Part shown: positions 25,403 through 28,566 of the stretch, one piece after another
Numbering within the stretch: the first letter of the stretch is position 1
How the letters are laid out: the number at the start of each line of letters is the position of its first letter
Assembly (NCBI GenBank): GCA_002793355.1
Contig: PFQB01000107.1
Span: forward strand, 1 to 40,830
Source of the DNA: Candidatus Dojkabacteria bacterium CG_4_10_14_0_2_um_filter_Dojkabacteria_WS6_41_15
Lineage (GTDB): Bacteria; Patescibacteriota; Dojkabacteria; GCA-002793355
Direction: 5' to 3'
Length of the DNA: 40,830 nucleotides
Program-made: the position numbers and the translations under genes
Notes under the pieces: model-generated
The model's input: the letters and a program-made list of their open reading frames with translations, nothing else
The model's database searches: none
What the model was told of the DNA's origin: nothing

Positions 25403-26794
25403 ATGCTAACAAAGCACAAAATTGCCGTAGCAGTTCTTATCGTGCTTTCGCTTGGTGCACTCATCACTTTTTTGCTGGAATGGCAGTATTCTCCCTTGAA
25501 TAAAGCGATTGCTTGGTATCACCTAAAAACAGGAAGTTTTGCAACGACACAAGAAGCATCAAAATACGTCACGACCTTGCTAGATAATGAGCAAATATCG
25601 GCACAAAAGCTGGCAAGCTATCCATACTTGGCGGTTTCGGAACAGATAACCGAAGTTGTCGAAACCGCCAAACCGTATACAACGGGAACCTCAGAAGATC
25701 AGAGTTTCCTTGCCGAAAAAACTTATACCTTTCCCTTCGGACAAGATGGCATATACGATCTTGAGCACCATTCTTTGTTGGTCGAGAGCAAAAAGGCTTC
25801 AAATTTTACTGTGATTGGAAAGACCTTAGCAGGACCAATCAACCAAACCGTATATGTTGGTAGAAAAAATGCTGAGGAATTAAAAAAGGAAGTACTTGCT
25901 CAATGGAAATTATTAGTAATTGCACTGGGGAAAAAGGATGCGAAGCAAGCGGAAGAACTGATTAGCTTCGCCGAATCAGAAAAGTTTGCAAAAACTGCCA
26001 AATTGTCTGACTTAAGGTATCGGTTGGCGCCGACGCCAAGCGTCGCCTTCGCCGTCGGCGCCGAAGATGCCCACACCATCCGTATTGGCACACTATCGCT
26101 CAAACAAAAGAACTGCTCGGTTACCGGAGAAATCTACCTTGTATACCTGAAGGATCGACGTGTATACCGTTTGGACAACACCTACACCGCTCTAGCTTCA
26201 ATGTGTGCAAAGCCTAAGCCCGTCAACTCGACTTCCTCTTCAACACTATCTTGTTCAAACTGTTGGTTAGCCCCTGTTAGCAAACAATACGCGCTACCTA
26301 CTGGATTCACTCCTTATGTGGTCAGCACCGGCCTAAGCGGTGGTGGTTATGTGACTCCTGATACAAAATCCGCTCTTGCAAAACTATTCGCTGATGCTAA
26401 AACCAATGGCATCACCGTACGTGTATCCTCCTCGTATCGTTCCTACTCCACGCAAGAATCCCTTTTTAATACCTACGTCAACAACGAAAAGAAGTATGGC
26501 TTAACTACAGCGCAAGCAACCGAAAAAGCCAATACCTATTCTGCAAAACCAGGACGCTCCGAACACCAACTTGGAACTACAACTGATCTTATGTCCTGCA
26601 AAGCACCCTGTTCTTTCTACGATTCAGCAAACAACGCGCTATACACCTACCTAAAGAACAATGCGCATAAATTCGGATTTGTCATTTCATATCCCAACGG
26701 CTCACAATCGTATACCGGTTACGTGTACGAACCCTGGCACATTAGATATGTAGGCACAACCTATTCGAACGAACTATATAATCACGGTATTTGA
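25403..26794 (+). CDS. membrane-anchored D-alanyl-D-alanine carboxypeptidase, VanY/peptidase M15B family
   Basis: An N-terminal TM anchor and a long linker domain precede the catalytic region. That region carries SSYRSYSTQ, SEHQLGTTTDL and EPWHIRYVG, the zinc ligand motifs of M15B. Confidence 0.85.
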   Translation: MLTKHKIAVAVLIVLSLGALITFLLEWQYSPLNKAIAWYHLKTGSFATTQEASKYVTTLLDNEQISAQKLASYPYLAVSEQITEVVETAKPYTTGTSEDQSFLAEKTYTFPFGQDGIYDLEHHSLLVESKKASNFTVIGKTLAGPINQTVYVGRKNAEELKKEVLAQWKLLVIALGKKDAKQAEELISFAESEKFAKTAKLSDLRYRLAPTPSVAFAVGAEDAHTIRIGTLSLKQKNCSVTGEIYLVYLKDRRVYRLDNTYTALASMCAKPKPVNSTSSSTLSCSNCWLAPVSKQYALPTGFTPYVVSTGLSGGGYVTPDTKSALAKLFADAKTNGITVRVSSSYRSYSTQESLFNTYVNNEKKYGLTTAQATEKANTYSAKPGRSEHQLGTTTDLMSCKAPCSFYDSANNALYTYLKNNAHKFGFVISYPNGSQSYTGYVYEPWHIRYVGTTYSNELYNHGI

Positions 26795-26857
26795 CTAAAT
26801 CGGGATATTATCTGTATCAGTTTTTGTTGGAAAAGGGGAAATACTAGACCTATAGTG

Positions 26858-26887
26858 TTGACTTCGGGGATAATACTCTAGTATAAT
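26858..26887 (+). promoter_or_regulatory. near-consensus sigma70 promoter for the micro-ORF pair
   Basis: TTGACT (26858-26863), 18 nt spacer, TATAAT (26882-26887). Confidence 0.65.
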
Positions 26888-26920
26888 TAGAAATCTCTTA
26901 CGAAAGGAGGTCAACAAAAA

Positions 26921-27010
26921 ATGGCACCAGCTAAAAGCAAGCCAAAGTCCAAAAAGGTCAAGAAGACCGAAAAGCACCGCAAGATCCAGAACAAAAAGAA
27001 AGGTGGTTGA
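26921..27010 (+). CDS. 29-aa extremely basic micro-protein (MAPAKSKPKSKKVKKTEKHRKIQNKKKGG)
   Basis: A strong SD AAAGGAGG (26903-26910) lies 10 nt before the ATG, and the ORF ends in TGA. It is below the length cut-off of the ORF track and sits downstream of a near-consensus promoter. Confidence 0.55.
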   Translation: MAPAKSKPKSKKVKKTEKHRKIQNKKKGG

Positions 27011-27012
27011 CC

Positions 27013-27105
27013 ATGGCCGGAACGAAAAGTTCAAAACGTAAGACCAGGAAGGCCAAGAAGCGCCGAACCCACAGGCCCCAAAAAGGCAATAAGGGCAAGC
27101 GCTAA
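27013..27105 (+). CDS. 30-aa extremely basic micro-protein (MAGTKSSKRKTRKAKKRRTHRPQKGNKGKR)
   Basis: It starts 2 nt after the stop of the first micro-ORF, with AAAGGTGG 6 nt upstream. Composition and layout are similar to the first peptide. Confidence 0.5.
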   Translation: MAGTKSSKRKTRKAKKRRTHRPQKGNKGKR

Positions 27106-27243
27106 CTTGGAGTGATGGGTAAAACCTCACACAATATAGGTAGGGTGCATCCGCATCCCGTGGAGCCGAAAGGTCCTGGAGCAATCGTTGCGATCACTTG
27201 ATCAAAACCCTAATCTCCTCTCTAATTCCACAAAGCACTACCT

Positions 27244-28566
27244 TTATCCCCCAAACAACCTCTCCGAAAACTCCAGCCCCTTCTTAATCAGTCTGATATC
27301 GTAATTTTCGTTAACTCCGTGCATGTTGCAGTCGTCGTTGGCGAGGGAAATCAAAACGGGATCAACACCAAAAACTCGTTTGATATCGATAACAATCGGC
27401 AACGTTGCACCACAGAAGTCGATAAGCACCTTGTCACCGTAAACTTCTTCCAATAAAGCAATTGCCTTTTTGTGCATCGACGAGGTAATGTCAACTTTTA
27501 TCGGTGCATTGTCGCTTTGCACGTCGACAATTTCGGCAGTTGCATAGTCAGGCGTATTTTCGACCAAGTATTGACGAATCATATTTTGCACAGTTTCAAC
27601 TGACTGATTTGCAGCAAGTCGTGTATTCAACTTTATGAACGCTGTTGCAGGCACGATATTCGAGTACCCACTGCCCGTGTAGCCTCCGTTAATTCCCGAC
27701 GGAACAATCATAGTAGTAAAGCCAACAACCTCGCAGAACGAGTTGTTTTTGCCCAAAAACCACTTCTTCACACCAGTCTGCTCTAGAGTCTTCATTTTGA
27801 CGCCATCCATATCTTTACAGAGCTGAAGCTCTTCAACAGTTGGGACTAGGTCCTTGTCATAAAAACCTTTAAGAACTAAGCGGTTGTTGTCGTCGTACAT
27901 TCGCGCGACCAGCTGCGAAGCCACGACCGTCGCGCTTGGAGCAGCACCACCATATAAACCAGAGTGCATGTTGTTTGCAGCAGTTGTCACTTTGACCGTG
28001 AGATTAAAGGTTCCTCTAAACGAGGCGGTAATAACGGGTTTATACGGCATTTCACCATCAGAGATTATGTATTGGTCGGCTTTGAACAATTCTGGGCGTT
28101 CCTCGAACAACTTCGAGATACCACCACCGCCGGTTTCTTCGTCACCTTCGACAACGAACACGATATTCTTAGTAAGTTTGCCTGCCTTGATTAACTCGAT
28201 AATACTCACCAAGTGAATCATAAATTGGCCTTTGTTATCAACAACTCCTCTACCCAACAACTTTCCGTCTTTTTCGGTCAACACAAAAGGATCAGCATCC
28301 CAACCATCTTCCTTGTTTGCGGGCTGCACATCATAATGGCCATAGACAAAAAACGTTTTTTTATCCGCCGAGACGGTGTATTTTGCAATCACAATTGGGT
28401 GACCATAGCCATCAACACGTTCAAATACGAAACCATTGTCGGTAAAATACTTTTTAAGCCATTCAACCGCACCCTCTATGCCAGATGCAAATGCCGGGTC
28501 GGTAGAAATACTTTGCTTAGAAACAAGTTCTGTAACTTGCTTCTTATATTCATCAAAATTATCCAT
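27244..28566 (-). CDS. M20/M25/M40 family metallopeptidase (dipeptidase / acyl-amino acid amidohydrolase type)
   Basis: Contains FFVYGHYDVQP, RGVVDNKGQ and FVVEGDEETGGGG motifs and a dimerisation-domain-sized insert. I preferred the ATG at 28566 (MDNFDEY); the longest ORF starts at TTG 28578. Confidence 0.85.
   Translation of the reverse strand: MDNFDEYKKQVTELVSKQSISTDPAFASGIEGAVEWLKKYFTDNGFVFERVDGYGHPIVIAKYTVSADKKTFFVYGHYDVQPANKEDGWDADPFVLTEKDGKLLGRGVVDNKGQFMIHLVSIIELIKAGKLTKNIVFVVEGDEETGGGGISKLFEERPELFKADQYIISDGEMPYKPVITASFRGTFNLTVKVTTAANNMHSGLYGGAAPSATVVASQLVARMYDDNNRLVLKGFYDKDLVPTVEELQLCKDMDGVKMKTLEQTGVKKWFLGKNNSFCEVVGFTTMIVPSGINGGYTGSGYSNIVPATAFIKLNTRLAANQSVETVQNMIRQYLVENTPDYATAEIVDVQSDNAPIKVDITSSMHKKAIALLEEVYGDKVLIDFCGATLPIVIDIKRVFGVDPVLISLANDDCNMHGVNENYDIRLIKKGLEFSERLFGG

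Follow-up and report, generated by a model that had tools for sequence, protein, structure and literature searches.

What does a short intergenic insert encode in the genome of an uncultured bacterium of the Candidate Phyla Radiation (CPR), where no gene has been annotated? The insert (~396 bp, 26848-27243) separates a VanY-type carboxypeptidase gene from a convergent M20 peptidase gene on contig PFQB01000107.1 (contig C102) of Candidatus Dojkabacteria bacterium CG_4_10_14_0_2_um_filter_Dojkabacteria_WS6_41_15, whose assembly (GCA_002793355.1) comprises 1.03 Mb in 138 contigs, is 86.7% complete, and has 41% G+C. The whole stretch of DNA analyzed, 40,830 nt, is referred to here as the window. 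The original prediction, made from the sequence, placed in this insert two tandem micro-open reading frames (ORFs) for hyper-basic peptides behind strong promoter and Shine-Dalgarno (SD) signals. Our preferred answer, which we put at about an even chance, is a young, free-standing tricistronic mRNA of small ORFs that is probably translated into hyper-basic peptides. The features that carry this answer, with the coordinates and letters first predicted for promoter, SD, and ORFs, are as follows.

26858 to 26887, plus strand: sigma-70-type promoter, TTGACT-18 nt-TATAAT, 11/12 match (boxes at 26858-26863 and 26882-26887).
26903 to 26911, plus strand: SD of ORF1, AAAGGAGGT, 9 nt ahead of the ORF1 ATG.
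26921 to 27010, plus strand: ORF1, 29 amino acids (aa), MAPAKSKPKSKKVKKTEKHRKIQNKKKGG, net charge ~+12, stop TGA.
26999 to 27006, plus strand: SD-like AAAGGTGG of ORF2, inside the end of ORF1 and 6 nt ahead of the ORF2 ATG.
27013 to 27105, plus strand: ORF2, 30 aa, MAGTKSSKRKTRKAKKRRTHRPQKGNKGKR, net charge ~+15, stop TAA, starting 2 nt past the ORF1 stop.
27115 to 27201, plus strand: ORF3, 28 aa, MGKTSHNIGRVHPHPVEPKGPGAIVAIT, in the frame of ORF2 and starting 9 nt past its stop.

The expression signals are as strong as had been claimed, the promoter being one of 50 in the 1.03-Mb genome (both strands) that score at least 11/12. Promoters of this class are evidently in use, since many of the 50 stand immediately ahead of a tRNA or a leaderless start. 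Two of the 50 are followed within 70 nt by an SD-like 5-mer and an ATG, and the other case lies inside a leaderless gene; apart from the promoter at this locus, no strong promoter in the genome is followed by a short leader with a full SD and then an ATG. A scan of 26000-28000 returned five promoter-like sites, all on the plus strand, compared with 2.6 +/- 1.9 in shuffled sequences. Transcription is predicted to start at ~26893-26894, as judged from the spacing between -10 box and ATG in the leaderless genes of this genome. The SD of ORF1 pairs over 9 nt with the 3' end of the 16S rRNA (...ACCTCCTTT...), and its spacing is within the range of the SD-led genes of the genome. The leader is A-rich, and ORF1 and ORF2 both begin with ATGGC. 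The original prediction had also called this SD the only canonical full one in the window. AAGGAGG occurs four times in the window against 4.0 expected by chance, and the motif alone is therefore not special. What goes beyond chance is the combination of promoter, SD, and ATG.

These signals are set in a genome that initiates most of its translation differently. Of 757 long ORFs, 5 have a GGAGG word 4-20 nt upstream of their first ATG, compared with 0.74% at random positions (no SD enrichment), and in 183 of 748 such ORFs a -10-like hexamer ends 5-7 nt ahead of it. Because SD words are at background and -10-like hexamers lie close to the ATG, translation in this genome looks predominantly leaderless, as had been suspected. 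The SD route is nonetheless intact, and some genes really use it. The 16S rRNA retains the anti-SD (ACCUCCUUU), its 3' terminus reading ...ATTACCTCCTTTTAGG, and a minority of genes have AGGAGG-type sites at spacings of 5-11 nt; gatA, gatB, rpoC, rpsB, and HU, identified by their N-termini as read, are among them. Another genetic code was rejected, as all three stop codons end ORFs of at least 150 aa (383 TAA, 246 TAG, and 138 TGA). A literature search on leaderless initiation in Dojkabacteria returned no paper that addresses the subject in its accessible part.

The products of ORF1 and ORF2 are small (3.3-3.5 kDa), have a pI of 11-12, and are without a hydrophobic segment. Lys, Arg, and His make up 14 of 29 residues in ORF1 (48%) and 16 of 30 in ORF2 (53%), so that the proposed excess over one half applies to ORF2 and is narrowly missed by ORF1. 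Ranked by Lys plus Arg content among the 3858 ATG ORFs of 25-60 aa in the genome, ORF2 is second and ORF1 third, and the two are adjacent. The only small ATG ORF richer in these residues than ORF2 is found on contig C92 (4870-4974; 34 aa, 50% Lys plus Arg), where no SD-like word lies upstream. In ORF3, the GGAG is located 2 nt ahead of the ATG, as was claimed, and codons 9-28 fall within a block shared with a variant RNA contig (see below). The locus is unannotated: the sole ORF of at least 60 aa listed in the region is, as previously noted, a 129-aa antisense ORF at 26795-27184.

A further property of the locus is the resemblance between its two basic units. Two repeats, D1 and D2, recur 95-96 nt apart. 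D2 (GAAAGG[A/T]GGT..) is common to the SD region of ORF1 and the SD-like AAAGGTGG of ORF2, and D1 encodes K-[S/T]-[K/R]-K-[V/A]-K-K in frame in both ORFs. The alignment score of the two SD+ORF units was reached by 0 of 500 dinucleotide, 15 of 1000 codon, and 40 of 2000 residue shuffles. Together, the spaced repeats and an alignment beyond shuffled controls support the suggestion that ORF1 and ORF2 are paralogues, and they point to a tandem duplication of one SD+ORF unit.

We hypothesize that transcription from the sigma-70 promoter, which is close to consensus, begins at ~26893 and yields an mRNA of ~345 nt with a leader, on which ribosomes would load through the 9-nt perfect SD:anti-SD duplex, an exceptional arrangement in a mostly leaderless genome. 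ORF1 would be translated first, and the proximity of stop and start may let the same ribosomes proceed to ORF2 (2-nt gap, its own AAAGGTGG) and perhaps also, after a 9-nt gap, to ORF3. The layout of ORF1 and ORF2 is that expected for translational coupling, as originally proposed. ORF1 and ORF2 would have been born by tandem duplication of one SD+ORF unit, and their products would be unstructured polycations (+12 and +15) whose likeliest activity is unspecific binding of nucleic acids, whether rRNA or the ribosome, other RNA, or DNA. Peptides of this composition are presumably hardly able to do anything but bind polyanions. We infer the strand and ends of this RNA, its translation, the coupling, and any function of the products. 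In terms of its sequence signals, the case for translation appears strong, resting on the A-rich leader, the 9-nt SD duplex at a spacing that is used in the genome, the ATG-GCN starts, the duplicated unit, and the 2-nt gap. Programmed frameshifting between ORF1 and ORF2 was also considered (C-AAA-AAG sites, and GGT-TGA-C behind the SD-like word); it was inspected by eye only, found no support, and was rejected.

The region is present in RNA libraries. One search found the stretch in 24 sequencing runs of groundwater and aquifer metagenomes, 3 of them metatranscriptomes, and contigs from the RNA libraries of two runs lie over the ORFs. This agrees with the transcription that had been predicted, with the strand not distinguishable. 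The two runs (X22 and X23) represent two studies, possibly of one campaign.

26909 to 27166 and 26915 to 27166, plus strand as listed (the contigs are strandless): RNA-library contig cover in two runs, word depth ~11-12.
27137 to 27238, plus strand: 3' block common with a variant RNA contig (100/102 nt), ending 6 nt short of the M20 stop codon.

The two RNA contigs begin 15-21 nt past the predicted transcription start and within 6 nt of each other, and a DNA contig of run X10 continues past their left ends (26828-26995). These left ends offer a weak hint of a 5' boundary fitting the plus-strand promoter. Both contigs end at 27166, where a variant RNA contig (runs X23 and X24) joins; the variant shares 27137-27166 and, in X24, 27137-27238. 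It measures 289 nt in X24, and the contig in X23 corresponds to its first 217 nt. Contig cover in the three RNA runs is lacking at 26300-26908 and at 27239-27800 (29 of 30 bins are covered in DNA run X10), and X22 and X23 have no cover past 27166. This lack does not count as a finding; unitigs also break at the variant joint (27137-27166). The other 187 nt of the variant contig do not match the window, which indicates that in some close relative this 3' block apparently follows an upstream part that is different or has diverged strongly. Relative to the window, the variant differs at 27189 (T>C) and 27192 (G>A), by eye both synonymous third positions in the frame of ORF3. Read by eye in that frame, the 30 letters of the variant upstream of the block give K-G-stop and then TTG, which would again put a start directly behind the end of a short ORF. 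The 30 letters are, moreover, similar to repeat D2.

A number of observations weigh against this explanation, and we gather them in this paragraph and the next. The coding signal is weak, as open ORFs carry little information by themselves: T makes up 7.6% of 26921-27105, the three frames are mostly open, and at this T content open frames of ~30 codons are unsurprising (~0.39 expected per frame by our own estimate). The micro-ORF segment has 49% G+C versus 41% in the genome, and its codon use is atypical, with a G+C content at third codon positions (GC3) of 62-67% versus 38% and with AAG for 14 of 21 Lys codons versus 36%. Composition-corrected BLASTP between ORF1 and ORF2 gave nothing significant (E = 22), as expected for sequences of such composition. 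The RNA contigs, which were placed on 26300-27800, show no strand, true ends, or expression level, and the left end of one of them (26909) lies inside the SD, next to 12 adapter letters that mark a fragment end. The two changes in the variant contig are equally synonymous in an antisense 31-aa frame, and the argument drawn from them consists of two sites. Moreover, the relative represented by this contig keeps the 3' block but not the 30 letters just upstream, so the basic part is either fast-evolving or not the conserved part.

The same applies to conservation. A DNA search matched 2 of 41 genomes, namely the source genome itself and, in G001, the VanY 3' end only. The ORF peptides were found in 1 of 11 genomes of the family (again the source genome), and, at an E cut-off of 0.001, none of 220 further genomes of the class returned a match to the 3' block; at E <= 1, class-wide matches were short chance matches, the best non-self one being 35 nt long (E = 0.0011). 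A HMMER search of ORF2 against 1.84 billion protein representatives returned 0 matches. In a word-indexed collection of 5.8 billion proteins, no word-sharing candidate of similar or shorter length was present for the ORF2-ORF3 read-through, and ORF2 was not recovered among the 30-33-aa proteins. The complete same-genus genome G003 (888,748 bp) has no counterpart by features, tblastn, or filter-off blastn. A scan of it gave 68 ORFs of 20-70 aa with at least 38% Lys plus Arg (nested starts counted separately), and among the 40 of these that were listed, 5 have a short SD-like word, all of them with TTG or GTG starts and at most 43% Lys plus Arg. Conservation of the frames in relatives, by which the original prediction could have been upheld, is therefore largely missing from the sampled genomes, the sole relative being the RNA contig that keeps the 3' block with most of ORF3. 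As no relatives with the frames were found, selection on them cannot be shown, and because there is no conservation the case for function is weak.

The arrangement itself is secure. An independent metagenome contig of 1609 bp (L006) is identical to the window through VanY, the micro-ORFs, and M20, so the arrangement is not an assembly artefact; searches with exact 24-28-nt patterns of viral, genome, and metagenome contigs returned this contig only. The locus is single-copy in its own genome (tblastn and filter-off blastn) and searches of phage, plasmid, and viral-contig collections did not find it. The VanY gene (PF02557) occupies 25403-26794. Compared with its counterparts in the genus's four other genomes, it lacks 1 nt of a Tyr codon, and this deletion moves its stop to 26792-26794. 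The conserved VanY end (~18 residues, ...LTK.G.YLYQFL.EKGKY) is still readable in the +1 frame up to the TAG at 26845-26847, which alignment with the relatives suggests was the ancestral stop. The same deletion is present in L006, so it is no one-off assembly error. Downstream of the predicted transcript, the only gene is the convergent M20 peptidase gene, with its stop at 27244.

Comparison with the relatives suggests that the insert is recent. In the closest relative (G004; M20 80% identical), no gap separates VanY from M20, and their stops overlap. A gene of 150 or 160 aa, which belongs to no Pfam family, lies between VanY and M20 on the M20 strand in G002 and G003, and in G001 the VanY/M20 neighborhood is rearranged. 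A probable remnant of the relatives' gene was identified in the window.

2874 to 3326 of L029 (G002) and 2813 to 3295 of L030 (G003), M20 strand: 150-/160-aa gene in the VanY/M20 gap.
27113 to 27142, minus strand: probable remnant comprising the promoter and first 7 codons of the relatives' 150-160-aa gene.

The remnant agrees with that gene at 20 of 24 nt, with E = 0.003 from a search of very small size, and by our own count at 25 of 35 columns of an alignment, which would place the micro-ORF segment where the body of the relatives' gene was. The possibility that the micro-ORF region is the reverse strand of that gene body was rejected (best tblastn E = 2.2). The VanY/M20 spot appears to turn over accessory genes within the genus. 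Since relatives whose M20 proteins are 75-80% identical are without the locus, the gene set would be young and accessory rather than core, and it looks restricted to one species and a near relative. As a separate observation, the M20 orthologue in G002 (L029; G002:C8 1501-2823) shows an in-frame TAA in the search match, yet an uninterrupted 441-aa ORF is listed there.

The promoter and the basic ORFs are flanked by the arms of an 11-nt inverted repeat (10/11 complementary), which meet two independently defined boundaries.

26848 to 26858, no strand: left arm, beginning directly behind the ancestral VanY stop and adjoining the -35 box.
27131 to 27141, no strand: right arm, straddling 27137, the first position of the block shared with the variant RNA contig.

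By our own estimate, ~2 such pairs are expected by chance per 700 nt, and six pairs of at least 10 nt were listed, so we record this placement and build no inference on it. A repeated mobile element of the type of miniature inverted-repeat transposable elements was rejected: inverted repeats are present, but the locus is single-copy.

The alternative that survives best is a non-coding or incidentally coding small RNA of ~0.3 kb, purine-rich and transcribed at a high level, whose ORFs are by-products of its low T content; we consider it unlikely, while treating it as a serious contender. It would account for the openness of all frames at 7.6% T, for peptides that are unconserved in every collection searched, for the atypical codon use, and for the fact that only the 3' block (27137-27238) is common with the variant RNA contig. 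The RNA contig that starts at 26909, within the SD, is also in its favor. In addition, a 7-bp helix (26909-26915/27006-27012), recognized by eye, could join the two ribosome-binding site regions; ~4 such helices are expected by chance per 350 nt, and we only note it. RNA structure, however, does not favor this alternative. No gathering-level match to Rfam 15 was obtained at the locus (best E 3.4 over 26780-27320; best scores 10.8-14.5 bits against cut-offs of 37-100), and folds barely beat shuffled sequences (z = -2.1 for the whole, -1.4 for the 3' part, and -1.2), none in 27106-27243 clearly doing so. CsrA (PF02599) and Hfq (PF17209), the usual partners of purine-rich sponge RNAs, gave no match at E <= 0.01 in the source genome, which at 86.7% completeness leaves their absence unproven; a sponge of the CsrB/RsmZ type or an Hfq-dependent one was rejected with this reservation. 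The initiation region itself also speaks against the non-coding alternative: a perfect 9-nt SD placed 9 nt ahead of an ATG in an A-rich leader, and duplicated, would be hard to keep untranslated in a cell with an intact anti-SD.

Relative to the tricistronic mRNA that we prefer, a second alternative concerns what its products do. The original prediction likened the peptides in composition to the small ribosomal proteins Thx, bS22, and bL37, and they might be lineage-specific ribosome- or rRNA-bound microproteins analogous to these and to eL41, a proposal we regard as improbable. Their size, charge, and hydrophobic-poor composition fit, the stretch occurs in RNA libraries, and the protein language-model neighbors of ORF2 include clusters carrying bL37 (HR_L37, 0.78), COX24_C (0.77, an annotation on 26% of cluster members), and eL41 (Ribosomal_L41, 0.77), although language-model scores below 0.9, as all of these are, serve as leads only. 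CPR bacteria have also been described as having smaller ribosomes (PMC12641178, in the part of that source accessible to us), which counts for this proposal. Family searches do not bear out the likeness. ORF1, ORF2, ORF3, and the antisense ORF matched 0 families in Pfam-A and NCBIfam at E up to 10; ORF1 and ORF2 had no match to the bS22/mS38 profile (COX24_C, PF08213) at E up to 10; and no Pfam-A match was obtained to bL37 (HR_L37, PF26427), a recent model whose presence in the copy searched is unverified. Among PDB sequences, the only likeness was one of 22 residues to the N-terminus of bS20 (E = 1.5). An origin from bS20/rpsT (PF01649) was rejected, as there is no Pfam match and the organism's own bS20 (contig C123) has a different N-terminus; its gene is itself leaderless. 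Moreover, the peptides were not found in four other genomes of the genus, one of them complete, or in the class, and this absence argues against a core ribosomal role, since a core component would be expected in same-genus genomes.

A more elaborate form of this idea is that new or newly acquired microproteins attach to the CPR ribosome, which is reduced, or to its rRNA, with synthesis running through the SD:anti-SD duplex and output tracking free anti-SD (idle 30S). We find this quite improbable. Within it, the peptides would constitute a self-adjusting, species-specific ribosome accessory, and the duplication, the 7-bp pairing, and the 11-nt repeats would be traces of a gene assembly that replaced the lost 150-aa gene; as a joint proposition, this too earns very little of our confidence.

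A third alternative is a cis-regulatory unit in which Lys/Arg-rich sensor peptides gate antisense plus-strand transcription into the convergent M20 gene. Termination is relevant in this respect. The check for a terminator in 27106-27243 that had been suggested found no intrinsic one, and the scan of 26000-28000 contained 0 terminator-like sites. A C-rich, G-poor stretch extends from ~27200 onward, behind ORF3, and a rho gene is present in the genome, which makes Rho-dependent termination near 27238 plausible for the mRNA that we propose. The same features are compatible with gated read-through, as are the position of M20 as the sole gene downstream (stop 27244) and the extreme richness of the ORFs in two amino acids. 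Set against these, VanY and M20 abut without the element in G004 and enclose another gene in G002 and G003, so M20 can do without it. The folds show no evident alternative terminator/antiterminator structure, and the likeness to the variant RNA contig ends at 27238, ahead of M20. Known attenuator leaders, for their part, control co-directional genes. We therefore judge this mode of regulation very improbable.

The weakest alternative, a minus-strand gene (the 129-aa antisense ORF at 26795-27184 or a decayed remnant of the relatives' 150-160-aa gene) with fortuitous plus-strand signals, can draw on the listing of that ORF, on contigs that cannot distinguish strand, and on the remnant at 27113-27142, but hardly merits belief, given that the ORF has no Pfam or NCBIfam match and 0 of 56 word-sharing candidates at E <= 1, that its pyrimidine-rich, F/L/S-rich sequence is the expected reverse of a Lys-rich stretch, that the minus strand has none of the 5 promoter-like sites of 26000-28000, that it would overlap the ancestral VanY 3' end, that tblastn with the relatives' 150-/160-aa proteins gave nothing better than E = 2.2, and that the remnant frame stops after 11 codons (by eye).

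Elsewhere in the genome, a gene-free stretch of ~1.2 kb on contig C12 (~27160-28350; L101 ~950-2140) contains two promoters (11/12 and 12/12), a tRNA, a short transcript with a hairpin and T8 terminator and without an Rfam match, and an SD-led (AGGAGGT) basic ORF of 39 aa that begins MAKTKSS (ORF2 begins MAGTKSS). As a conserved sister family, this 39-aa ORF was rejected, having matched 1 of 221 genomes of the class (its own) and no Pfam family.

If the peptides are made, the locus would be a small-protein operon of an uncultured CPR bacterium that gene callers have overlooked. A mostly leaderless genome would then reserve a perfect SD for a very small and very basic product, which could provide a handle on how initiation modes coexist in CPR bacteria. 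As the locus appears to have replaced a different gene of close relatives, it is a well-delimited candidate for the origin of young microprotein genes. Should it instead be a non-coding RNA, it would represent an abundant, unclassified CPR small RNA. Either way, its significance is limited by the restriction to one species, and a functional role is conjectural.

The locus belongs to no known family, although its kind, small ORFs on a short transcript and polycationic microproteins, is already known. The closest likeness in terms of the products is to bS22, bL37, bTHX (Thx), and eL41, which have 24-35 residues, about half of them Lys or Arg, and no hydrophobic core. These ribosomal proteins are described as lineage-wide, whereas the locus peptides have no sequence-family match and are unconserved even in the genus; in addition, the locus has two tandem paralogues and a third ORF under their own promoter in a variable intergenic spot.

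In terms of the transcript, the locus resembles dual-function or small-protein small RNAs such as RNAIII/hld, SgrS/SgrT, and SR1/SR1P, which are likewise free-standing transcripts of a few hundred nt with their own promoter between unrelated genes, and whose ORFs, under 50 codons long and equipped with regular start signals, escape gene callers. It differs from these in having three ORFs arranged for coupling, two of them polycationic paralogues, in having no RNA-family match, and in that Hfq was not found. Attenuator leader peptides of the hisL, thrL, and pheL type likewise pair a strong promoter with a short ORF, immediately downstream, in which one or two amino acids are strongly enriched. 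Unlike them, the locus has no co-directional gene and no terminator/antiterminator pair, its ORF is duplicated, and it is missing in close relatives.

Protamine- and histone H1-like proteins, including chlamydial Hc1 and Hc2 and the Lys/Ala/Pro-rich tails of mycobacterial HupB, provide a last comparison. ORF1 is similarly rich in Lys, Ala, Pro, and Ser (AKSKPKSKK type), and charge-based binding of DNA or RNA would be expected of it, although the locus peptides are ten times shorter and the likeness is one of composition alone. Against this background, what sets the locus apart is that its hyper-basic paralogues stand in tandem, that a perfect SD occurs in a CPR genome dominated by leaderless translation, and that the replacement of another gene can be dated.

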